From: a virus
IMG/VR virus record: IMGVR_UViG_3300027752_001458
Location: 32,001 to 96,000 of that record
Length of the DNA: 64,000 nucleotides
Strand: one strand, 5' to 3'
Within the stretch, counting starts at the first letter, position 1. Every line of letters begins with the position of its first letter. The position numbers were made by a program, and so were the translations under genes. Positions 31,617-61,089 of the stretch are shown in pieces. The notes beneath the pieces were generated by a model that saw only the letters and a list, made by a program, of their open reading frames with translations, searched no databases and was not told where the DNA came from.

Positions 31617-32480
31617 ATGAAATTAGCTGTTGTAGGCTGTAGCTGGTCTAGCCGAGATGTAGATTATCCTGATGTGGAATTTGGCAAGTTAGTAGCAGAC
31701 TATTACGATGCTGAATACATTAACATGGGAAAGCCTGCATGTAGTAACCCAGGTATAGCACTCCAAATAGATTACATCCTCGATGGTCACATGGGCCCAC
31801 TACCTGACTTAGTATTGATCAATGCTACCACAGTAACCAGAACAGAACTTAAACTAAACAGTAAACGCAGATTTGATCCTAAAGCAAGTTGGGATAATGT
31901 GCAGTTCAACATGATGTTTGGAGAGAAGCTTAGAGACATACATGCACCTGGGTACGGCAAAGGATACGATCCTAGTATTGTAATAGACAGTTTCTCTACT
32001 ATATTTGGTGAGGACATGCAGAAGTCGTTCGGCGAAGCATACTTCCATCCTAGATACGAAGATGCATTTACACCAAAGTCATATGAAGCAATGAAAAAAT
32101 GGTTTTTATACTTCTTTGACGCTGACTTAGAAAGATATAAACAGCAAATGATACTGCTTGGTTCCTGCTTAAAACTAAAAAAGAAAGGTGTTAAATTTAT
32201 CTTTTGTCCTAATACATTTGACTGGGCCGAAGACTTATACTTACAAAAAGACAAGCCTAGTACTGAAAATCCAGAGAAATCAGTGACATGGGAAGTGCTA
32301 GAAAATAGCGAACTACTATGGTCAGGCATTGCAGAATCTTTATGGTTAGAAAATGAAATTTACGGCAGTTATGAAAAGAGTCCAGGCAGTTATATGGACA
32401 ATCACTTGCCAGTAGAATGCCATATGGACTTTGCTTACAAAGTTATATCACATGTAAATCAGCATGGATTGGCTAAATAA
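31617..32480 (+). CDS. SGNH/GDSL-hydrolase-like hypothetical protein
   Basis: N-terminal VVGCSWS, NMGKPACSN, and C-terminal DNHL...H. Confidence 0.55.
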   Translation: MKLAVVGCSWSSRDVDYPDVEFGKLVADYYDAEYINMGKPACSNPGIALQIDYILDGHMGPLPDLVLINATTVTRTELKLNSKRRFDPKASWDNVQFNMMFGEKLRDIHAPGYGKGYDPSIVIDSFSTIFGEDMQKSFGEAYFHPRYEDAFTPKSYEAMKKWFLYFFDADLERYKQQMILLGSCLKLKKKGVKFIFCPNTFDWAEDLYLQKDKPSTENPEKSVTWEVLENSELLWSGIAESLWLENEIYGSYEKSPGSYMDNHLPVECHMDFAYKVISHVNQHGLAK

Positions 32481-46453: not shown

Positions 46454-46705
46454 ATTATTCTCCTAAAATGTGATGTTACACACATGCACACATGTTTGGG
46501 GTAACCTCACCTCGAATGAGGAATGTTACAACTAATCAAACGCTATGTTACAGTTGTGTTACAACAGGTATTTATGCAACTGGTAATTTTTTGTGCTTAA
46601 ACACGGCAGAGTTTAAATAATTAGACTAGCTAAACGATAAATACATTTACATAACACATATCACACACTTAGATAATAATAAAATAATAAAATCAGGTGA
46701 AGTGA

Positions 46706-47002
46706 ATGGAAGACATTTTTAAACTTATAGGCGAAGTTGGGTTGCCCATAGCAGGCTCCCTAACGATGGGCTTTTTTATATTCCTCATAATTAAACAAAT
46801 GCTTGCCGGCATTGTCGGTCAAATTGAAACACTCACTATGTTCTGCAAAAGCCTAGAAGGCCGAGCAAGAACAATGAGCAATGAGATGATAAAAATCGAC
46901 TTGCTTGTTAGTAGTGCATTGAATTTAAGACCAGACATTGAACGTATAGCAAGAGCCGAAAACTTTGTTGAAGACGGCAAATTAGATGTGAGGCGAGACT
47001 AA
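46706..47002 (+). CDS. Small single-pass membrane protein with coiled coil
   Basis: GLPIAGSLTMGFFIFLII hydrophobic segment; first gene after the late promoter at 46636-46643. Confidence 0.7.
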   Translation: MEDIFKLIGEVGLPIAGSLTMGFFIFLIIKQMLAGIVGQIETLTMFCKSLEGRARTMSNEMIKIDLLVSSALNLRPDIERIARAENFVEDGKLDVRRD

Positions 47003-47301
47003 TGGATATGGCTCAACTGATATCCGACCACGGCTACCCAGTAGTAGCAACAGTGGGATTGGGATATTTTATTTTTTATGTATGGCGCTTTATAGGTTCA
47101 GAAATTAAACCTGCATTAGGCAACATGCATATGGCGTTAATAAGAGTTATTGATCAGACGAGGATGCTTGATCAAGACATGATTCGATTACAACAAAAAG
47201 TAAACGTTGTAATAGAGTACAGACAGAGACAAGAAGTTCTAGAAGATGCAGAAGAAAAGACTGCACTTAGAGAACAAAAACAACAGGAAGTTAAAAAATG
47301 A
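47002..47301 (+). CDS. Small single-pass membrane protein (paralogue of the previous gene)
   Basis: GYPVVATVGLGYFIFYVW followed by a helical tail (RMLDQDMIRL versus RTMSNEMIKI). Confidence 0.7.
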   Translation: MDMAQLISDHGYPVVATVGLGYFIFYVWRFIGSEIKPALGNMHMALIRVIDQTRMLDQDMIRLQQKVNVVIEYRQRQEVLEDAEEKTALREQKQQEVKK

Positions 47302-47795
47302 GTAAGTTTTTATTAATAGCGGTTGGCTATTTTGTAATTGCTCTTGCACCAAGTGTACAAGCAGACCAACTAACACATAAATTTAAGTCTCCGAGTTTCA
47401 GCGGCATTGGAACTGGAGCACATTACCTTACGATTGAGAATCAAGAGAAAAGTCGTAGGGACAAAATTGCAGACAACATTGAATCGGCACTTAAAGCGGC
47501 AGAGCGAGCAGACTCAAACAGCACAATTAACAAATTCATTAGAAATTTAGAGAGTAGAATATACGCTCAAATCTCTAAAGGATTAGTTGACAGCATGTTT
47601 TGTGATCCGGCTACTGTAGTAGAGTGTACAGGTTCAGACTCAGGTGATTTTACAATTGAAGGTAATAATGTAAGTTACCAAATAGTTATAAGTGACGATG
47701 GATTAGAAGTAATGAGACTTACTATTGTTTCTCCAGATGGCACAATAACACAGATAGAAATACCGATTGGCATCGGCAGTATCGGCGGCGGATAG
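47298..47795 (+). CDS. csgF: Curli assembly protein CsgF-like
   Basis: Signal peptide, then QLTHKFKSPSFSG, NLESRIYAQIS and C-terminal TQIEIP; directly upstream of csgG. Confidence 0.8.
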   Translation: MSKFLLIAVGYFVIALAPSVQADQLTHKFKSPSFSGIGTGAHYLTIENQEKSRRDKIADNIESALKAAERADSNSTINKFIRNLESRIYAQISKGLVDSMFCDPATVVECTGSDSGDFTIEGNNVSYQIVISDDGLEVMRLTIVSPDGTITQIEIPIGIGSIGGG

Positions 47796-48796
47796 TGAAA
47801 GATTTTTATAAACTTTTTGCCGTAGTGGCATTATTGCTAACTACTGGGTGTGCCAGTATTGCTATACCAGGTGACAAGCAGTGCCAGGCTGATTTTTTAG
47901 AATGCATTGAAGAACCACAACAAGTAGAACTCCCAACTTATAGAAAGTTACGTTACCTACCTCCTGCGGAAACAATGCCAGTAGTAGCAGTTTACCAATT
48001 CGCAGACTTAACAGGACAACGTTTAAGTTCGGACGGAGCGGCAAGTTTTAGCACAGCCGTAACACAAGGTGCAAAGGATTTACTAATTGACGCTCTTAAG
48101 GCGGCAGGCGCTGGAAAAGACCCTAAGGGTACTTGGTTCCGTGTCGTTGAAAGAGGATTAGGATTAGATAATTTAGTGCGGGAAAGGCAGATTATTCGAA
48201 GTACAAGAGAATCATATGCCAAAGATAGCGACCCCGCACAGCAAGTACAGCCATTATTATTTGCTGGGATGATATTAGAAGGAGGAGTTGTAGGTTATGA
48301 CTCGAATATCGAAACAGGTGGCTCAGGTGCAAGATATCTTGGTATAGGGACAACAAACCAATACCGAAGAGATAGTGTAGTGGTATCATTGAGAGCAGTA
48401 AGTACACTTACAGGCGAAGTGATATTGAACGTACAGACATACAAGACCATTCTAAGTGTAGGGCAAGCCGGCGATGTGTTCAAGTTCCTTGACATGGACA
48501 CTAAATTGCTTGAAATAGAAAGTGGTTTGACAGAAAATGAGAGTGTAACATGGGGTGTTCGTTCAGCGATTGAAGCCTCTGTTTTAGCTCTTGTTGAACA
48601 AGGTGACGAGAGAGGATTTTGGAAAATAGTTTACCCAGAAAATTGGGACCAACTAGTGGCTGAGCAAGAACAGGCATATTGGACGAGGGAGTCTATTAAG
48701 TTACTTAAAGACCCTATTAGTAACGAAACGAAATCTAAACTCAACAAGAACGATGATTCTATTGTAAAGAAAATTTTTTACAAAAAGGAATCTTAA
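47795..48796 (+). CDS. csgG: Curli secretion channel lipoprotein CsgG
   Basis: Lipobox TTG-C; VAVYQFADLTGQR, FSTAVTQG, WFRVVER, LDNLVRERQIIR, EGGVVGYDSNIETGGSGARYLGIG and LRAVSTLTGEV motifs. Confidence 0.93.
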   Translation: MKDFYKLFAVVALLLTTGCASIAIPGDKQCQADFLECIEEPQQVELPTYRKLRYLPPAETMPVVAVYQFADLTGQRLSSDGAASFSTAVTQGAKDLLIDALKAAGAGKDPKGTWFRVVERGLGLDNLVRERQIIRSTRESYAKDSDPAQQVQPLLFAGMILEGGVVGYDSNIETGGSGARYLGIGTTNQYRRDSVVVSLRAVSTLTGEVILNVQTYKTILSVGQAGDVFKFLDMDTKLLEIESGLTENESVTWGVRSAIEASVLALVEQGDERGFWKIVYPENWDQLVAEQEQAYWTRESIKLLKDPISNETKSKLNKNDDSIVKKIFYKKES

Positions 48797-48818
48797 TTAA
48801 CCATATATGGAGTAAGTT

Positions 48819-49619
48819 ATGAAGACAAATAAATTTTTTAAGAATACATTATTAACCGTCTTCGCTATAACAGGGATATTATCAATTGACCTTGCGTCAG
48901 CGGATAATGAAGTTTTAATAGATCAAGTTGGTGACAACTTAACCTTAACAGTTTTACAAGCAGGCTACGGTAACAGTTTATCTGGAGATACAAGTCAGGG
49001 TACTGATTTAACTCTCACAGGCGGTAGTTTAATTGTAGATCTAATCCAAGACGGTAATTTAAACGAGATCTTCGGATCTTGGGTACTCGATGGATCAGGG
49101 TCAAGTGTATTAGATTTTTACTTTCAGGGTAACAGCAATATCTGGGATATGAATATTGGTGCTACAGGCAGTAGTGATTATACTGATATTTTATCAAACA
49201 TTACTGGCGACAGTAACCTTTTTGATATTGATATTGGTGGTAACAACACAGCTGAAAGTTCAAATATGGATCTAGTAGTACTCGGATCAAGAAACGATTT
49301 CTCAACTAGTTTTACTAATAGTAAAGTTTGGGCCGCAGGCTCTGGCAACAATTCTACTGGTACACAGACTATGTCAGGAATTTTAATTGATTCAAGTTAC
49401 AACACTTGGAACTTTGATATCACAGGATCAGACAATGCGTTTGCCACAAAGCAACAAGGCAATGACGCACATCTATTAACTGTGGAATTAGACGGTAGCG
49501 ATGGTGATTTCCAATTTATACAAGATATGACAACCACATGCTCACCTGCTTGTAACGGTGTCATTAATTTAAATATAAATAGTGAAAATGCGTCAGTTAG
49601 TGTTAAGCAGACAGACTAG
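48819..49619 (+). CDS. Curlin-like secreted repeat protein 1
   Basis: Signal peptide, then N/G/D/S-rich repeats of type IxQxGxxN (IDQVGDN, IQDGNLN, FQGNSN, KQQGND). Confidence 0.7.
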   Translation: MKTNKFFKNTLLTVFAITGILSIDLASADNEVLIDQVGDNLTLTVLQAGYGNSLSGDTSQGTDLTLTGGSLIVDLIQDGNLNEIFGSWVLDGSGSSVLDFYFQGNSNIWDMNIGATGSSDYTDILSNITGDSNLFDIDIGGNNTAESSNMDLVVLGSRNDFSTSFTNSKVWAAGSGNNSTGTQTMSGILIDSSYNTWNFDITGSDNAFATKQQGNDAHLLTVELDGSDGDFQFIQDMTTTCSPACNGVINLNINSENASVSVKQTD

Positions 49620-50763
49620 TACATTAGCATTTATGCTTTTGTTTGCGTTTAATGTGCAAGCCTCCGTCGGCTCAATCGGCGGAGTGCTTGAACAATCTGG
49701 AAGTGTAGCACAAATACAACGAAATAAAGAAAACATACGAGCAGTTTTAAACGAAGAGATTGCTAGTATGGATGAAGTAGAAACAAAGAACGGACGATTG
49801 AAAATTAAATTTGTCGATGATACACTAGTGAGTTTAACAGAACACACTTACATGGTCATCGACGAATATGTGTACGACCCGAACCCAAGTAAAAGCAAAA
49901 TGGCATTAAATTTTGTGTCAGGTACAGCAAGATTTGCCACAGGCGGCTTAGGTTTAGTACCCAGAGAGAACATTACAATACAAACTCCTACAGCAAGTAT
50001 AGGCATAAGGGGAACAGATTTTACTACCACAGTCGATGAACTGGGTAGAAGCCTAGTAATACTATTACCAGACGATAATTGTACTGATAAGGTATCACTA
50101 GAAGAAGGTTGTGCACCTAGTGGGAGTATAACAGTCACTAATGCAGGCGGAACTCAAGTGCTCACAGAAGCATACCAGGCAGTAATGGTAAGCACTTTTG
50201 AGACTATACCGACCACTCCGGTTACACTTGTTAATTTAGATTTAAATATGATTGACAATATGTTCATTGTAAGCGAACCTGTAGAAATTAAAGAGGCAGT
50301 TGAGGAACAACAAAGCGAGTTAAAAGGTAGCGCCGGACTTCTAACTTTTAACGGGCTAGACCAGGACTTGCTAGATATAGAAGGACTGGAATCTAATACG
50401 GCAGATAATTATGAATTTACAGAATTAGATATAGATTTTTTAGATGTTGAATTCTTAAATGATTTATTAGACATCCTAGAGGATAATATAGATTCGCTAG
50501 GCGAAGAACTTAACAATCAAGGTGACGGCACCGACAAACTAATAGGCACACGCTTTGGTAACGATCCAGGTACGCAGTTTAATACGTTTGCAGATTACGA
50601 TGGTAAAGTATTCTTTTTAAGACAAGTATCAAACAAAATTGGAATTAAATTAGAAAAAGGTAGTCAAGCAAGAATTGAATTGTTTGACTCAGATGTAGGA
50701 GAAAACTTAATATGCCTAAACAGTTGTGACGGCATATACATTAGTATTACACAAAATGATTAA
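49582..50763 (+). CDS. Secreted FecR-domain protein
   Basis: Signal peptide; ETKNGRLKIKFVDDTLVSLTEHT...IQTPTASIGIRGTDF (FecR domain); acidic linker. Confidence 0.8.
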   Translation: MKMRQLVLSRQTSTLAFMLLFAFNVQASVGSIGGVLEQSGSVAQIQRNKENIRAVLNEEIASMDEVETKNGRLKIKFVDDTLVSLTEHTYMVIDEYVYDPNPSKSKMALNFVSGTARFATGGLGLVPRENITIQTPTASIGIRGTDFTTTVDELGRSLVILLPDDNCTDKVSLEEGCAPSGSITVTNAGGTQVLTEAYQAVMVSTFETIPTTPVTLVNLDLNMIDNMFIVSEPVEIKEAVEEQQSELKGSAGLLTFNGLDQDLLDIEGLESNTADNYEFTELDIDFLDVEFLNDLLDILEDNIDSLGEELNNQGDGTDKLIGTRFGNDPGTQFNTFADYDGKVFFLRQVSNKIGIKLEKGSQARIELFDSDVGENLICLNSCDGIYISITQND

Positions 50764-51628
50764 AATATTACAGACAATTATATTAGTAGCAGGACTTGTA
50801 TTTGCAGAACAAGTAGCAAGTGCTGACAACGAAGTGCTTATAGACCAGACTGGCGACAACGTTGTTATTGGTATCTTACAGGAAGGATACAATAACAGTA
50901 TTGATGTAGATTTAGGATTAGCTACTTTTGATACTTCCAACACATTTGAAGTAAAACAGGAAGGCCATAATAACGAAGTTTTCCTTAGTGTAGGTGGAAC
51001 TGACAATACGTTGGTGCTGATACAAGAAGGCAACAACAATGATATCAGTTGGACAGATTCTTGGGGCAGTGGTAAAGCATGGGGCGGAGACTTAGACGGC
51101 AATTATAATAACATACACATTCAGCAAAAATGTAGTTTTACAACATGTAATCCAAACGAGGCTCAATTTCATATATGGGGCAACAGTAACACCGTTCTAT
51201 TTGGGCAAGGCTATTATCTAACAGGCCCTAGCGATACAACATTTGATTATGATAACTGGGAACCAGGTGGCAACTTTCTCCGGTTAGACATTCACGGCAG
51301 TAGTAATAGTTTTAAAGGTGGTCAAAAAATGGATAGCACTAGTACTAATCATAATATGACTGTAGACATACATGGTAACAGCAACAATGTATTTGCACAG
51401 CAATGGGCCAATGGTAACAAGACACTTACTTTAAACGTTGACAGCAACAGCAATTCTGTTGCCATTGAACAAAACAATAGCGGTAATCACACCGCAACAG
51501 TAACACTTGATGGTTCGTACCCTACAAGTTTGAACTTGCTACAAACAGGATCAGGTAATCAGTCATACACACTATTCCAAAACTGCCAAACAGTTGGCGG
51601 ATGTAGTGTGTCTATAACACAGGACTAA
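50756..51628 (+). CDS. Curlin-like secreted repeat protein 2
   Basis: ATG at 50756; signal peptide; QEGYNN, QEGHNN, QEGNNN, HGNSNN and QTGSGN repeats. Confidence 0.72.
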   Translation: MIKILQTIILVAGLVFAEQVASADNEVLIDQTGDNVVIGILQEGYNNSIDVDLGLATFDTSNTFEVKQEGHNNEVFLSVGGTDNTLVLIQEGNNNDISWTDSWGSGKAWGGDLDGNYNNIHIQQKCSFTTCNPNEAQFHIWGNSNTVLFGQGYYLTGPSDTTFDYDNWEPGGNFLRLDIHGSSNSFKGGQKMDSTSTNHNMTVDIHGNSNNVFAQQWANGNKTLTLNVDSNSNSVAIEQNNSGNHTATVTLDGSYPTSLNLLQTGSGNQSYTLFQNCQTVGGCSVSITQD

Positions 51629-51728
51629 AACGCAAGTGAATCACGTATTTCATTGATCTGCGCCAACAAATTTGCATAAATAAACTTTGTAAAAGGGTTA
51701 ACCTTTTCGACAACCTAAGGAGAACGCT

Positions 51729-52016
51729 ATGAATAGATTACTATCTATTACAGCAGTCCTCGGTTTTGTTGTTTTTCTTCCGTCATGTGCGTCAGTTGGC
51801 GCAGTAATTGAAGGTGGGAAAGAGTTTACTACAGGCGTAGTAGATGGATCCGTTAATGCAGTTTCTACAATAGCAGGAGCAGTATTAACAGATGTATCTA
51901 GTATCACAAGCACAGCGGCACAAGCCGCTACAGGTGTAATTGACACCGTTGCGACTGAAGTAGATAAACAAACCGATGCATTGCAAGAACCAAAAGCAAA
52001 GCCAGAGGGAAAGTAG
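51729..52016 (+). CDS. Small lipoprotein; candidate -1 frameshift extension to 52126
   Basis: AGGAG RBS, lipobox LPS-C and an amphipathic A/V/T-rich helix; ends G GGA AAG TAG. Confidence 0.75.
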   Translation: MNRLLSITAVLGFVVFLPSCASVGAVIEGGKEFTTGVVDGSVNAVSTIAGAVLTDVSSITSTAAQAATGVIDTVATEVDKQTDALQEPKAKPEGK

Positions 52017-52127
52017 TAACTTCATCAGCCAGGAAGGTAGATGAAGAAATTGCTGAACAAGACATTAAAGTTATAGTACGCAGTATTATGATGTATTGTT
52101 CTAAAAATCCCAAGGAATGCGAATAAC

Positions 52128-52155
52128 AAAAGCACACTACGGTGTGCTTTTTTTT
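52128..52155 (+). terminator. Rho-independent terminator
   Basis: AAAAGCACAC-TACG-GTGTGC followed by T8. Confidence 0.88.
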
Positions 52156-52168
52156 GATAAATATATTA

Positions 52169-54226
52169 ATGAAATGGTTACTAAGCGGCTGGACCGTAGC
52201 AATATCTATATTACTATTAACGACTTTACGAGTTGCCGACCCTACACCATTACAGAGTTTGCGTAGTCAAACATTCGATGCATTACAGCAATTAGATGTT
52301 AAAAAAGAAAGCAACGAAGTTGTTATAATTAACATTGGCGAAAAAAGTTTACAACAATGGGGGCAATGGGCATGGCCAAGACAGAACATAGCACAGTTGA
52401 TATCAGATTTGCGGAGCAAGAACGCTGGAATAATTGGTTTAACGATTATGTTTCCGGAAACAGACCGATTTGGCGGGGACGCAGTTTTGTCAAGTTGGAT
52501 GTCGGAGAACGGGGTAGTTTTATCCCAGACCCCATCTGGCAGAGGAATAAAGAGTACAGGTCCTCATATTGGTACAGCAACGATAGGCCCAGTATCCGCT
52601 ACGGACTACTTGCTGACATGGCCGAATCTCGTAACGAATATTGATATATTAGAGAAGTCAGCCGCAGGCATTGGCGTAGTAGCAAGCGAGCCACAAGCAG
52701 ACAATCAGACGAGAACATATCCACTAGCAGTCGCTGTTGAAGGAAACATATATCCTAGTTTTGCTATTGAAATGCTTAGGGTGTATACAGGCAAACCTAG
52801 TTATATTCTAAAGACATCCGAGATCGGCATTAAAGAATTTGCAGTACCTCCGTTTGATCCTATTGTGACATCCGGAAGAGGTTCTGCATACATAAGATTT
52901 AATAACATATTTGAAGAACACGAGTATGTTCAAGCGAGTGAACTGCCTGACTTAGGCGGAAAGTTCGTAATAGTGGGAGTAAGTGCTGAGGGTGTTGCTA
53001 ATCCGGTTCCCACTCCGGTAGGCAACATATATCCACAGTACATACAAGCTCATATGCTACAGAACTTTATTGATGGTAGTAACATTACCAGGAGTGAACT
53101 AAGTGCTGTGTACGAGCTTCTGTGTGCGTTGTTGAGCATGATCCTAGTGGCTCTTGCGATATATAAGTTACCCATATGGGCAGGACTGTTTACTACAGTA
53201 AGTATTGTAGGAGCAATTGCCTATTCTACTGTACACTTTTATACTGCAAACTTATATTTGTTCGATGCAACCTTCCCTGCAATAGCAACATTCTTAATTT
53301 TTACACAGGCAAGTTTTAATAACTTCTGGGTACAGTTTAAATTGAGACAAGAAATACAGAAACAATTTGCTGGATATGCCTCACCTACCGTTGTTAGAAT
53401 GTTACAAGATAACCCGGACTTAATTAAACAAGGCATGAAGAAAGAAGTTAGTATATGCTTTTCAGACTTACGTGGCTTTACTCCACTAGGTGAGAGCTTT
53501 GGCGATGATGTACAGGGCTTAACAAAAATGATGAACGAGTATATGGATGCTATTACACAACCTATACTTGATGCAGACGGCATGGTGATTAAATATATCG
53601 GCGATGCAAGTATGCACATACACAATGCTCCTATGGACGACCCAGATCATCCTAAGAGTGCGGTGCAAACAGGATTACAAATGCTTAGGGCAGTGGAGAA
53701 GTTTAATGATAAAATTGTTAAAGAGGGCAGACCACCCATTGGTATGGGTGCTGGTATTAATACTGGGCTCGGTTATATTGGGGAAATGGGCTCCACTGCA
53801 AGACACTCATATGACATACTCGGAGACGCAGTTAGTACTGCCGCGAGAATAGAAAGCAAGTGTAAAGAGTATGGGTGCTTATTACTTGTAGGTGGAGACA
53901 CATACAAGCATACTAAGAGTGATTTCTTTTATCTAAAAGTAGATGACTTGCAAGTAAAAGGTAAAAGTGTTGGAATAGAAATATACACTGTACTGGATAT
54001 TAAGCGAACTAAGTATGTTAAAGGTAAGCAACTACACGCACAGATGCATAAACATTATCGTAACCAAGACTTTAATAAAGCAATTAAATTGTGTAATCAA
54101 CTGTCTAAAACCTTTGATGGTAAGATGAAAGATTATTATGCTATGTGGATTGAACGTTGTGAATTTCAACTAACACAAGACTTACCTAAAGATTGGAACG
54201 GGATATTTATTGCCACAGGCAAGTAG
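52169..54226 (+). CDS. CHASE2-domain class III adenylate/guanylate cyclase
   Basis: N-terminal TM, WGQWAWPR...FPETDR (CHASE2), three TMs, then FSDLRGFT, KYIGDA, GAGINTG, YDILGDAVSTAARIE and VKGK; ATG at 52169 after GATAAATA. Confidence 0.92.
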   Translation: MKWLLSGWTVAISILLLTTLRVADPTPLQSLRSQTFDALQQLDVKKESNEVVIINIGEKSLQQWGQWAWPRQNIAQLISDLRSKNAGIIGLTIMFPETDRFGGDAVLSSWMSENGVVLSQTPSGRGIKSTGPHIGTATIGPVSATDYLLTWPNLVTNIDILEKSAAGIGVVASEPQADNQTRTYPLAVAVEGNIYPSFAIEMLRVYTGKPSYILKTSEIGIKEFAVPPFDPIVTSGRGSAYIRFNNIFEEHEYVQASELPDLGGKFVIVGVSAEGVANPVPTPVGNIYPQYIQAHMLQNFIDGSNITRSELSAVYELLCALLSMILVALAIYKLPIWAGLFTTVSIVGAIAYSTVHFYTANLYLFDATFPAIATFLIFTQASFNNFWVQFKLRQEIQKQFAGYASPTVVRMLQDNPDLIKQGMKKEVSICFSDLRGFTPLGESFGDDVQGLTKMMNEYMDAITQPILDADGMVIKYIGDASMHIHNAPMDDPDHPKSAVQTGLQMLRAVEKFNDKIVKEGRPPIGMGAGINTGLGYIGEMGSTARHSYDILGDAVSTAARIESKCKEYGCLLLVGGDTYKHTKSDFFYLKVDDLQVKGKSVGIEIYTVLDIKRTKYVKGKQLHAQMHKHYRNQDFNKAIKLCNQLSKTFDGKMKDYYAMWIERCEFQLTQDLPKDWNGIFIATGK

Positions 54227-57846: not shown

Positions 57847-57936
57847 GGAGAGTTGGCTGAGTGGTCGAAAGTACCTCCCTGCTAAGGAGGCGTCTGGGTA
57901 ACTGGACCGAGGGTTCGAATCCCTCACTCTCCGCCA
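57847..57936 (+). tRNA. tRNA-Ser(GCT)
   Basis: GGAGAG/CTCTCC acceptor, CCTCC-CTGCTAA-GGAGG anticodon arm, long variable arm, GGTTCGAATCC, encoded CCA. Confidence 0.95.
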
Positions 57937-57981
57937 CTATTTTAGAGCATTGGCAATGCTGGTGGTAAATATACGCAGTAA

Positions 57982-58056
57982 GCGAGTATAGTATAACGGT
58001 TATTACAAGACGTTGCCAACGTTTGGATATCGGTTCGATTCCGATTACCCGCTCCA
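57982..58056 (+). tRNA. tRNA-Gly(GCC)
   Basis: AGACG-TTGCCAA-CGTTT anticodon arm, GGTTCGATTCC, TCCA end; one A-C mismatch in the acceptor stem. Confidence 0.9.
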
Positions 58057-58106
58057 ACTACGAATAGTTCGTAGGCATTGTTACAAGTGTAACAGGAAGG
58101 TATAAC

Positions 58107-58349
58107 ATGGTTAATGCAATAACAACCAAAAAAGTAAGTAAGGCAACAACACCAGCAGTGTTAAAAAGAAAAGAAATCGTAGATATTGATTTTGACTTTT
58201 CTAAGATTGGTGAGAATGTCCAGAAGAACGCAGAACAGATTAGCAAGAACCTTATGAGGAATGCTGAAATGATCGGTGAAAATGTTAAAAGAAACTCAGC
58301 GAGAGTTGGCGATAACATGAAGAAATACTTAAATAGAAATATTAAGTAA
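58107..58349 (+). CDS. Small basic protein with 11-residue amphipathic repeats
   Basis: AGGAAGG RBS; FSKIGENVQKN / AEQISKNLMRN / AEMIGENVKRN / SARVGDNMKKY. Confidence 0.7.
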   Translation: MVNAITTKKVSKATTPAVLKRKEIVDIDFDFSKIGENVQKNAEQISKNLMRNAEMIGENVKRNSARVGDNMKKYLNRNIK

Positions 58350-58363
58350 GCAAGAAAATATCT

Positions 58364-58439
58364 GGGGCTGTAGCTCAGTTGGGAGAGCGGTTCCCTTGCA
58401 CGGAACAGGTCGTAGGTTCGATCCCTATCAGCTCCACCA
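58364..58439 (+). tRNA. tRNA-Ala(TGC)
   Basis: 76 nt, GGGGCTG...CAGCTCCACCA with G3:U70, GTTCC-CTTGCAC-GGAAC anticodon arm. Confidence 0.95.
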
Positions 58440-59191: not shown

Positions 59192-59238
59192 CCGCCGTAA
59201 CAACATTCAAGCCTTTGTAAAAAACAATAAATACATGT

Positions 59239-61089
59239 ATGTCAAAAATAAATCCGTTTAAAGACTTTGAAGTCACTAACCACACACCAGTAGATTTTAT
59301 TATACTTACAGACCCATACGGACTGTATAATGCACAGAACTGGGGCACACACATGCAGGCAGTGTTCAAGATGACTGGGCAGGAGCTTGATCCTGATGTT
59401 GCTAGAGCACTACAGACTCGCAAAACAGACGACTCGTATAGTCCTAATGCTATATCTCATTCCCGTGGCCCGTCAAATTCTTACCATTTACGAACATTGG
59501 GTGCATATAAAGTTGCACATGAATGTAGGTTACGTGGATACACTGTACAAGTTGTAGATTACCAAAGTTTTTATGATTTAGAAACGTTAAAACGAATTAT
59601 GGACAAGTATGTAGGCAAAAACACATTGGCAATCGGCATATCGGTATCATTCTACATGCGATATCCTTGGATGTTGAATATGGTGACAAAAGAAATGCCT
59701 GTATTGCCACTTGAAGGCGTAAAAGATGAAGGCAAAATATTTGACGACTGGACTCTTAACTATTCCGGCTTCTTAACACACGGTGAAGAGATTGATGATG
59801 CCTTTGTTAACTATGTAAAAGACATTAACCCTAATGTAAAGTTTATTAAAGGCGGAACTAGAGCAAGAGAAGATATAGTTCACCGGAATGTCGACTACAT
59901 AAATGTGGGCTGGGGCGATGTGACTATGCCGGAGATGCTTGATGAAATAAAAGCAGGCACGTCTGACGATATGCCAGTTCACACTAAGCACCCTTACAAG
60001 TTAGACCTGCTCAGTAAGTTAGCAATGGAGCACAGTACCATGAAATTTACAAAGTCAGATTTGTTATTCCCTGGCGAACTGATGCCACTTGAGTCCGGAC
60101 GAGGTTGTATTTTTAAATGTACATTTTGTAGTCTTGAATTAGTTGGTAAAGAGAAAGGCACATACATTAAGTCAGAAGAAAGCATCAGACAAGAATTTAT
60201 ACACAATTACGAAGAACATGGCATAAAAGATTACTGGTTTGTCGAAGATACTTTCAACGATGACCATGACAAAATGATACACTTGCATGAGATTATTACT
60301 AGTTTACCATTTAAAATTACGTTCTCATGTTATTTAAGATTAGATTTACTTTTCATTGGCAACAAACATAACCCTCCACAGCATCAGCTACTACTAGAGA
60401 TGGGATTGAAGCGAGTGGAGTTCGGTATTGAGACGACTAACCATGACAGTGGAAAGGATATCGGCAAAGGATTGAATCCACAAATACAATTACAATTTTT
60501 AAGAGACTTAAAAGCGGATCACGGTTGGAAAGATATTTTAATCGGGTCAGGTTTTATTATGGGTCTACCTAGCGACACAAAGGAAAGTATCCAAGAAATG
60601 TTTAAGATAATGAGTCGAGATGATTTCCCAGTAGACAGACCTACAATTAGGTCATTGCACATTAGACCTGAAGAAACAGGTAACAATGCTATTGAGGAAC
60701 GTGGGCTTAGTGAATTTTCCAAGAATTGGGAAGAGCATGGGTACACTATGTCGTACGACAACCAGCATGGCATATTTAAAACTTGGACAAATAGAAATGG
60801 TGTGTCTTTAGAGATGTGTGAAAAAATGCTATTGAATTATTTTAGACGCCACGACTTCAAACCGTTTAAGTCCGCCAAAGCTCAACAAATGAACATGGCA
60901 ATATTAGCCACAATAGGCGTTGCAGAATTAGTGGCCCAAGGATTGCATTGGCCCACAGTTAGTGAAGACATCAAATTCGATCTATTAGAATTCGAGCAAA
61001 CAAATCCTAAACACACAAAACAGTTATCAGAAATACAAGCACTGAAGTTCTTAAAGTATACTGAATTACTACTGACACAGGATCTATAG
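59239..61089 (+). CDS. Radical SAM protein with N-terminal B12-binding-like domain (copy 1)
   Basis: ESGRGCIFKCTFC, EDTFND, YLRLDL, FGIET and GFIMGLP motifs; N-terminal GAYKVAHECR...VQVVD. Confidence 0.88.
   Translation: MSKINPFKDFEVTNHTPVDFIILTDPYGLYNAQNWGTHMQAVFKMTGQELDPDVARALQTRKTDDSYSPNAISHSRGPSNSYHLRTLGAYKVAHECRLRGYTVQVVDYQSFYDLETLKRIMDKYVGKNTLAIGISVSFYMRYPWMLNMVTKEMPVLPLEGVKDEGKIFDDWTLNYSGFLTHGEEIDDAFVNYVKDINPNVKFIKGGTRAREDIVHRNVDYINVGWGDVTMPEMLDEIKAGTSDDMPVHTKHPYKLDLLSKLAMEHSTMKFTKSDLLFPGELMPLESGRGCIFKCTFCSLELVGKEKGTYIKSEESIRQEFIHNYEEHGIKDYWFVEDTFNDDHDKMIHLHEIITSLPFKITFSCYLRLDLLFIGNKHNPPQHQLLLEMGLKRVEFGIETTNHDSGKDIGKGLNPQIQLQFLRDLKADHGWKDILIGSGFIMGLPSDTKESIQEMFKIMSRDDFPVDRPTIRSLHIRPEETGNNAIEERGLSEFSKNWEEHGYTMSYDNQHGIFKTWTNRNGVSLEMCEKMLLNYFRRHDFKPFKSAKAQQMNMAILATIGVAELVAQGLHWPTVSEDIKFDLLEFEQTNPKHTKQLSEIQALKFLKYTELLLTQDL

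Follow-up and report, generated by a model that had tools for sequence, protein, structure and literature searches.

The record IMGVR_UViG_3300027752_001458 of IMG/VR is a virus fragment of 109.7 kb, from which a 64-kb part (positions 32,001 to 96,000, in the following called the window) was analysed. The window codes for a T4-like portal, major head protein, tail sheath and tail fibres, and near-identical DNA is present in marine metagenome runs of about a dozen studies. At the DNA level, Methylophilales phage Melnitz and Pelagibacter phage HTVC008M, both Kyanoviridae, are the only isolated phages related to it. Treated here is a locus at positions 46706-54226 of the window, where parts of a curli secretion system are encoded together with a secreted FecR-domain protein and a class III adenylate cyclase carrying a CHASE2 domain. 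It is a further copy of the published pelagiphage curli (type VIII secretion) module known from SAR11 and OM43 phages and is not new. A previous reading, made from the sequence alone, had described a single co-oriented locus with this gene content. This was borne out, as nine open reading frames on the same strand were found, and the CsgF, CsgG, FecR, Curlin_rpt and CHASE2 plus Guanylate_cyc identities all exceed the Pfam cut-offs.

The locus, all features of which lie on the + strand, begins with two small membrane proteins, A (smA, 98 amino acids, 46706-47002) and B (smB, 99 amino acids, 47002-47301). These are followed by a CsgF homolog with a signal peptide (47298-47795), the outer-membrane channel lipoprotein CsgG (47795-48796), a first curlin-like secreted repeat protein (curlin-like 1, 48819-49619), the FecR-domain protein of 391 amino acids (49588-50763), a second curlin-like secreted repeat protein (curlin-like 2, 50759-51628), a small lipoprotein of 95 amino acids (51729-52016), and the cyclase of 685 amino acids (52169-54226). 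Three start codons were revised from alignments of homologs, to the ATG at 49588 for the FecR gene (open reading frame from 49582), at 50759 for curlin-like 2 (from 50726), and at 52169 for the cyclase (from 52142). As neighbouring genes between 46706 and 51628 overlap by 1, 4, 1, 32 and 5 nt, or in one case sit 22 nt apart, this part reads as one operon; the FecR gene overlaps curlin-like 1 by 32 nt and curlin-like 2 by 5 nt. In a hydropathy scan a hydrophobic N-terminal segment of signal type was seen in CsgF, CsgG, both curlin-like proteins, the FecR protein and the 95 amino acids protein, and a lipobox-type cysteine is present in CsgG and in the last of these.

Proteins of the locus

CsgG matches Pfam PF03783 with an E value of 2.4e-43 and aligns over its full length to CsgG of E. 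coli (E 1e-44) with the lipobox cysteine in register. Of the three constriction residues of the E. coli protein (Tyr51, Asn55, and Phe56), two differ in the alignment of the phage CsgG. CsgF scores 38.5 bits with PF10614 (cut-off 25.8) and yielded no match to PDB sequences at E 0.1; its N-terminal constriction motif was judged by eye only. The sequence-only reading had recognised neither CsgE nor CsgD, and indeed no Pfam match to CsgE, CsgC or CsgD was obtained among the nine open reading frames. Alphaproteobacterial curli operons are also without CsgE, CsgC/CsgH and CsgD (PMC9599517).

The two curlin-like subunits have 266-289 amino acids with cysteine pairs near the C-terminus. Curlin-like 2 scores 21.3 bits with Pfam Curlin_rpt, just above the cut-off of 20.7 (E 2.6e-4), and curlin-like 1 gives a weak signal below the cut-off (E 0.027). 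Comparison of the two families by hhalign shows them to be homologous (probability 99.4%, E 3e-21), and the best PDB match of both family profiles is CsgA 8enq, with E values of 5.6e-4 for curlin-like 1 and 3.8e-5 for curlin-like 2. The profile of the latter also matches the curlin-repeat protein 8c50 (E 2.2e-4). An AlphaFold model of curlin-like 2 is an all-beta solenoid (pTM 0.78). Foldseek yielded no significant match for this model; a wide structural search among 48,161 chains found Pontibacter CsgA, 8c50, as the best one (Z 19.6 over 221 residues, 23% identity), generic beta-helices reaching Z 12-17. The root mean square deviation to 8c50 is large, as expected for a bent solenoid. In two papers these phages were said to lack CsgA/B (PMC7029224, PMC9004378), a statement corrected by Wittmers et al. 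(PMC9599517). The tests described here agree with this correction, proteins of CsgA/B type being present. The curlin-like 2 family has conserved histidine and tryptophan positions, W102, H138, H179, H198, and H244, which are kept within the solenoid repeats and could form a metal- or ligand-binding face.

The FecR protein matches Pfam FecR with E 6e-10 and, taken alone, has more than 4500 clusters of relatives. Its structural model (mean pLDDT 74) consists of a signal helix at residues 3-21, a confident beta domain at 28-228, an acidic linker of low confidence, and a confident six-strand beta domain at 320-391. The first beta domain matches the periplasmic C-terminal domain of PupR (Z 15.9 over 136 residues) and the Parabacteroides anti-sigma factor 4m0h (Z 14.3). 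Neither a cytoplasmic anti-sigma domain nor a membrane anchor was found in the protein, the signal-type helix running straight into the beta domain. Owing to the missing anti-sigma domain it does not qualify as a FecR of the FecI/FecA kind. A search confined to the nine genes of the locus found no extracytoplasmic function (ECF) sigma factor and no TonB-dependent transducer. The C-terminal domain yielded no informative PDB match by profile, and in the fold search with the whole model it stayed below Z 4. The motif I-x-I-x-Q plus one or two residues ends every curli-linked FecR homolog, from phages or Caulobacteraceae, and is absent in FecR proteins paired with a cyclase only. The FecR proteins of two bacterial loci treated below, L005 and L006, end in a similar I-x-V-x-Q motif. 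Both curlin families end similarly to the curli-linked FecR proteins.

Residues 27-99 of the FecR protein also match 5ix9, the anchoring domain of a Marinomonas ice-binding adhesin (Z 9.1, 72 of 76 residues, 24% identity). The match listed by Foldseek had been thought to concern the C-terminal domain, which was rejected since it actually lies on this N-terminal subdomain. 5ix9 is a cell-surface anchoring domain and template for the LapA retention module, and a kinship of FecR-type domains with adhesin retention modules may be worth a look.

The cyclase matches Pfam CHASE2 with E 6.8e-39 and Guanylate_cyc with E 1e-17. Hydrophobic segments are found at residues 4-22, 313-331, and 334-352, so that the order is a transmembrane helix, the periplasmic CHASE2 domain, a transmembrane bundle, the cytoplasmic cyclase domain, and a helical C-terminal tail, with CHASE2 located between membrane helices. 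When aligned to Pseudomonas aeruginosa CyaB (3r5g), the catalytic motifs FSDLRGFT, KYIGD, YD..GD, and AAR are found, and both metal-binding aspartates, the lysine and aspartate for the substrate, and the transition-state arginine are kept. An aspartate at the substrate position combined with a serine in place of the transition-state asparagine is limited to a sub-clade made up of this phage, Melnitz, and the relatives L051, L056, and L057 (L numbers denote loci compared here). In the other 28 phage or bacterial cyclase homologs read, the asparagine is kept and a serine or threonine occupies the substrate position. The catalytic domain shares 73% nucleotide identity with Melnitz, which is the sole long DNA match of the locus. 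In the cyclases of the sub-clade this domain (window 53360-54226) is far more conserved than the CHASE2 half. As the distribution of the sub-clade among the relatives does not track CsgG identity, an exchange of the cyclase between phages is suggested by the sequences.

The two small proteins were described as paralogs in the sequence-only reading, and this was confirmed, both matching phrog_18771 and BLASTP giving 23% identity between them (E 2e-8). Protein A has one N-terminal transmembrane helix followed by a helical tail, with a hydrophobic segment at residues 11-37 in the hydropathy scan; the equivalent stretch of protein B is below the threshold of the scan. At E 1 Pfam yielded only one chance match, the PHROG is of unknown function, and the Atlas neighbours are viral hypothetical proteins. 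The label histidine kinase given to these proteins (PMC9599517) was rejected, because they comprise only 98-99 amino acids and neither HisKA nor HATPase was found in Pfam, PHROG or Atlas neighbours. A holin-like reading was dropped as well, since no match to a holin family was found in the same three sources. For counts of linkage the 80 IMG/VR viral contigs closest to the CsgG of the window were used (CsgG identity 53-88%), and the small pair is present in all 77 loci with enough upstream flank.

The lipoprotein of 95 amino acids has a signal sequence with its cysteine in the lipobox-like context LPSC. Its gene is an insertion specific to this lineage, found only in the closest relatives L051, L052, L053, and L056 and missing in Melnitz and HTVC008M. 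It is conserved at 40-82% identity in these four relatives and has a strong hairpin 3' of the gene.

Promoters and linkage

Late promoters had been proposed at 46636, 51675, and 52156. This holds by placement and conservation of the motif but not by its number, as ATAAATA occurs 21 times in the window against 21.8 expected by chance, a count uninformative by itself. Nine of the 21 lie between genes, no more than 100 nt ahead of a start on the same strand, for which 1.6% of positions qualify (binomial P about 2e-11, a significance somewhat inflated by AT-rich spacers). The motif at the head of the operon, GATAAATA (46636-46643), is found as an identical octamer ahead of the portal, tail-fibre, and other large structural genes, and with a promoter motif in common with structural genes the late expression proposed earlier is plausible. 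In 53 of 77 related loci ATAAATA is present within 90 nt upstream of the first gene. The motif of the lipoprotein gene, CATAAATA (51675-51682), is followed by a strong AAGGAG ribosome site, and all four loci having this gene carry it at -52 to -61.

The third motif, again GATAAATA (52156-52163), stands right after a terminator-like hairpin with a 10-bp stem and a T-run (52128-52151) 3' of the lipoprotein gene. Only 5 nt separate its end from the cyclase ATG, with no Shine-Dalgarno sequence. Its -12 spacing is kept in six close relatives (L051, L053-L057) despite differing flanks, and this promoter is probably real. In T4 late promoters the motif is located at -13 to -6. If this geometry applies, the RNA of the cyclase would likely begin at the A of the ATG and be leaderless. 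The gene at 59239 likewise has an ATAAATA ending 5 nt ahead of its ATG (59227-59241), and for the FecR gene the distance is 6 nt (49575-49590); under the T4 geometry the spacing in all three cases predicts leaderless late mRNAs.

The neighbourhood check which had been suggested for the FecR and cyclase genes showed that they occur together with csgG: all 57 loci whose flank is long enough contain FecR, and 35 of 36 contain the cyclase. The order in the GenBank entries of Melnitz and HTVC008M is two hypothetical proteins, CsgF, CsgG, a curlin-associated protein, FecR, a second curlin-associated protein, and an adenylate/guanylate cyclase. Wittmers et al. in 2022 described the module in podo- and myoviruses of the pelagiphages, with FecR and cyclase as conserved partners and with the closest relatives in Alphaproteobacteria (PMC9599517).

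Bacterial versions were found by a pattern scan of species genomes using the FecR alignment; a scan of genome contigs with a single cyclase protein gave no match. Two contigs from metagenome-assembled genomes (MAGs), one of Henriciella (396 kb) and one of Caulobacteraceae (82 kb), have csgF and csgG followed without interruption by one or two curlin-like genes, FecR, and the CHASE2 cyclase, in this order. Their neighbours are ordinary chromosomal genes, among others for alanine racemase, FAA hydrolase, a TonB-dependent receptor, and amidohydrolase. The small membrane pair was not found in the bacterial clusters by tblastn, the lipoprotein likewise being missing there. As they are missing from the bacterial versions, the small pair and the lipoprotein are additions on the side of the phage.

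The pairing of FecR with CHASE2 is itself known from bacteria. On pSymB of S. meliloti an open reading frame of 1219 amino acids, with an N-terminal FecR domain (E 1.9e-15), tetratricopeptide repeats (TPR), and a C-terminal barrel signature, stops where a CHASE2 cyclase starts. By size and position, together with later papers, this is NsrA, an outer-membrane protein that passes a plant signal on to the CHASE2 cyclases CyaK, CyaD1, and CyaD2, activating them (PMC13001267, PMC7529298). Campylobacterota have a cluster of a FecR outer-membrane protein, a TPR protein, a CHASE2 cyclase, and a phosphodiesterase (PMC9239204), and in Burkholderia a FecR/LysM protein shares an operon with a CHASE2 histidine kinase (PMC5192318). 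The sequence-only reading had found no described system for the link to a signalling output. This did not hold, FecR plus CHASE2 being a pair recurring in these three bacterial groups, and the idea of a relay across the envelope has a bacterial precedent.

Some observations on related sequences and on the surroundings are added here. Three short contigs bearing the module (L004, L008, L009) are found in MAGs labelled Parvibaculum, Candidatus Pelagibacter, and Flavobacteriaceae; two of them have the small membrane genes, and all are most likely phage DNA carried into the bins. In two IMG/VR contigs of 217 and 340 kb (L058, L059), far beyond the size of T4-like pelagimyophages, the locus is present but an additional 3.8 kb separates curlin-like 2 from the cyclase; these contigs may represent larger phages, chimeras or concatemers. 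The window also has three tRNA genes (Ser-GCT, Gly-GCC, Ala-TGC; 57847-58439) directly 3' of its structural genes.

A possible relay and its rivals

We read the locus as a complete curli operon of alphaproteobacterial style with an in-built periplasmic sensor pair, working in the way outlined in the following, and assign to this a probability of roughly 0.6. Transcribed from its late promoter, the phage would make the outer-membrane channel of CsgG and CsgF, with the two secreted beta-solenoid proteins of curlin type as cargo of the channel or as a fibre. It would also make the secreted FecR-type protein and the adenylate cyclase of the inner membrane. The FecR-type domain may contact the periplasmic CHASE2 domain, as is thought for NsrA and the CHASE2 cyclases of S. 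meliloti, and the C-terminal domain specific to curli-linked FecR proteins would tie the protein to the curli machinery or its subunits. Synthesis of cyclic AMP (cAMP) would thereby track secretion or the condition of the cell surface, the signal running inwards, and a role in aggregation or in timing may result; the sequence-only reading had listed cell aggregation, sensing of superinfection, and lysis timing as possible roles. In a more specific version, which we hold to be quite unlikely, the FecR protein acts as the periplasmic adaptor of a CsgE-less curli system, in which its FecR domain engages CHASE2 and its C-terminal domain CsgG, CsgF or unfolded curlin. The load of secretion or the assembly of the fibre would set the level of cAMP, and an unrecognised reader, such as a small membrane protein, would time a late step like lysis. 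Such a reader is invoked because the phage and most hosts of SAR11 type are without a canonical cNMP receptor.

Several observations weigh against the reading of the locus as a curli operon with a sensor pair. The main one concerns the reader of the cAMP. The domain cNMP_binding was not found in the 109-kb phage fragment, the complete genomes of Melnitz and HTVC008M, and three large relatives, and GAF domains were not found in the phage fragment, Melnitz, and HTVC008M. In 61 sampled genomes from the family of a Pelagibacter MAG, cNMP_binding was present in two and class III cyclases in three. If the host is SAR11-like, the product of the cyclase would have no recognisable receptor. The change of the transition-state asparagine to serine in this phage, Melnitz, L051, L056, and L057 may lower the activity of the cyclase. 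In favour of the reading, contigs from metatranscriptomes of three studies cover the locus, several at at least 99% identity, but these come without strand, starts or levels, and carry-over of DNA is possible; the presence in RNA libraries agrees with the published expression of the module in Pacific metatranscriptomes (PMC9599517). One locus, L052, has no cyclase within 4 kb. That the C-terminal domain of FecR might be homologous to the curlins was rejected at the domain level, with hhalign probabilities of 2.5% and 0.6%; the two share only the short ending. The full arrangement is uncommon in bacteria: a sample of 401 alphaproteobacterial genomes contained eight close homologs of CsgG, and just the one of Henriciella has FecR and cyclase nearby; in the other seven neither was found by tblastn with the phage proteins, by which distant versions may be missed. 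In turn, FecR plus CHASE2 cyclase pairs without curli genes are found on a Ruegeria plasmid and in several alphaproteobacterial MAGs. As each half occurs without the other, the curli half and the FecR-CHASE2 half can function apart.

The last three of these points speak for an explanation in which the curli unit and the FecR/CHASE2 sensor travel together as independent neighbours without crosstalk, the sensor reading another periplasmic or external cue, and the cluster of the Campylobacterota (PMC9239204) is in line with it. Nevertheless this appears unlikely, as the genes are interleaved in the order curlin-like 1, FecR, curlin-like 2, cyclase with overlapping reading frames, and as the linkage counted above persists across much divergence and also in the bacterial versions. 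In addition the curli-linked FecR proteins share a C-terminal domain and an end motif absent from other FecR proteins. The name of the Pfam family, the suggestion of Wittmers et al. (PMC9599517), and the possibility that CsgG passes small solutes would fit a module for iron or cofactor uptake with FecR as a regulator of iron-citrate type. This is extremely improbable for a protein having a signal sequence of cleavable type and no cytoplasmic anti-sigma domain or anchor, which is encoded in a locus of nine genes with no ECF sigma factor or TonB-dependent transducer; across bacteria, such a FecR domain is paired with CHASE2 sensors and not with FecI/FecA.

A pore of CsgG and CsgF might also serve as a channel for lysis timing or permeability, similar to a pinholin or secretin, with no fibre being formed and the other genes being accessory. 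Such a role was proposed for Melnitz, where infected cells were not seen clumping (PMC9004378). The CsgG constriction-loop residues that are unlike those of E. coli, the absence of CsgE from the locus, and the two small single-pass membrane proteins, which are holin-like in size and head the operon in phages only, could be understood in this way. The proposal assumed, however, that CsgA/B were missing, whereas the locus encodes two conserved proteins of curlin type, each with a signal peptide. A role in lysis timing would be senseless for bacterial chromosomes, which hold the same gene set, and the small proteins match no holin family. A mere lysis channel is thus very unlikely.

Phages of this kind are abundant in the surface ocean and bring the secretion of a surface fibre and a cAMP-making sensor into cells having neither. 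If the module works, then late in infection it would alter the surface, and perhaps the aggregation, of bacteria that are among the most numerous on Earth. For research on signalling it offers a compact, self-contained FecR-CHASE2 pair; a search of the literature turned up no ligand or mechanism for CHASE2. As the locus is already published, the value of the present analysis is in sharper hypotheses rather than in discovery. Its additions are the view of the cyclase as a CHASE2 protein in the frame of NsrA-CyaK, the bacterial counterparts of the full cluster, and the curli-specific end of FecR. Further additions are the cyclase sub-clade with the asparagine to serine change, the missing reader of cAMP, and the likely leaderless cyclase promoter.

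Comparison with known systems

The closest system is the pelagiphage type VIII secretion module of HTVC008M, Melnitz, and uncultured myo- and podo-pelagiphages (PMC9599517, PMC7029224, PMC9004378), which has the same genes in the same order and is likewise without CsgE, CsgC, and CsgD. In contrast to it, the lineage of the window has a lipoprotein cassette, equipped with a promoter and a terminator of its own, inserted between curlin-like 2 and the cyclase, and the CsgG of the window has a longer C-terminus. The surroundings differ as well, the locus lying beside tail-fibre and tail-sheath genes in the window but after the ssb gene in Melnitz and HTVC008M. The pelagiphage papers call the small proteins histidine kinases, which is unsupported here, and leave the CHASE2 domain unnamed.

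The clusters of Henriciella and Caulobacteraceae (L011, L010, L005, L006) share the five core genes in the order of the phage, with identities of 49-52% for CsgG, 35-37% for FecR, and 34-35% for the cyclase over its full length including the C-terminal tail. They differ in that their curlin-like genes, either a single long one or two shorter ones, all precede FecR, leaving none between it and the cyclase, in lacking the small membrane pair and the lipoprotein, and in being chromosomal among housekeeping genes. The E. coli Csg system has in common with the phage locus a CsgG aligning over its full length, a CsgF recognised above the Pfam cut-off, and solenoid subunits with repeats of curlin type, whereas the phage locus is without CsgE, CsgC, and CsgD and has subunits of 266-289 amino acids with the cysteine pairs and, in curlin-like 2, the histidine and tryptophan positions described above.

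For the sensor half, the NsrA-CyaK type of S. meliloti resembles the phage in that a secreted FecR-domain protein is encoded directly upstream of a CHASE2 class III cyclase. NsrA has about 1200 amino acids with TPR and an outer-membrane barrel, while the phage protein has 391 and neither of the two, and the cAMP of S. meliloti is read by the CRP-type regulator Clr, whereas no such reader was found for the phage system. The clusters of Burkholderia and Campylobacterota also place a periplasmic or outer-membrane partner with a FecR domain beside a CHASE2 sensor, as in the phage, but they differ from it in the output domain or accessory genes and contain no curli genes.

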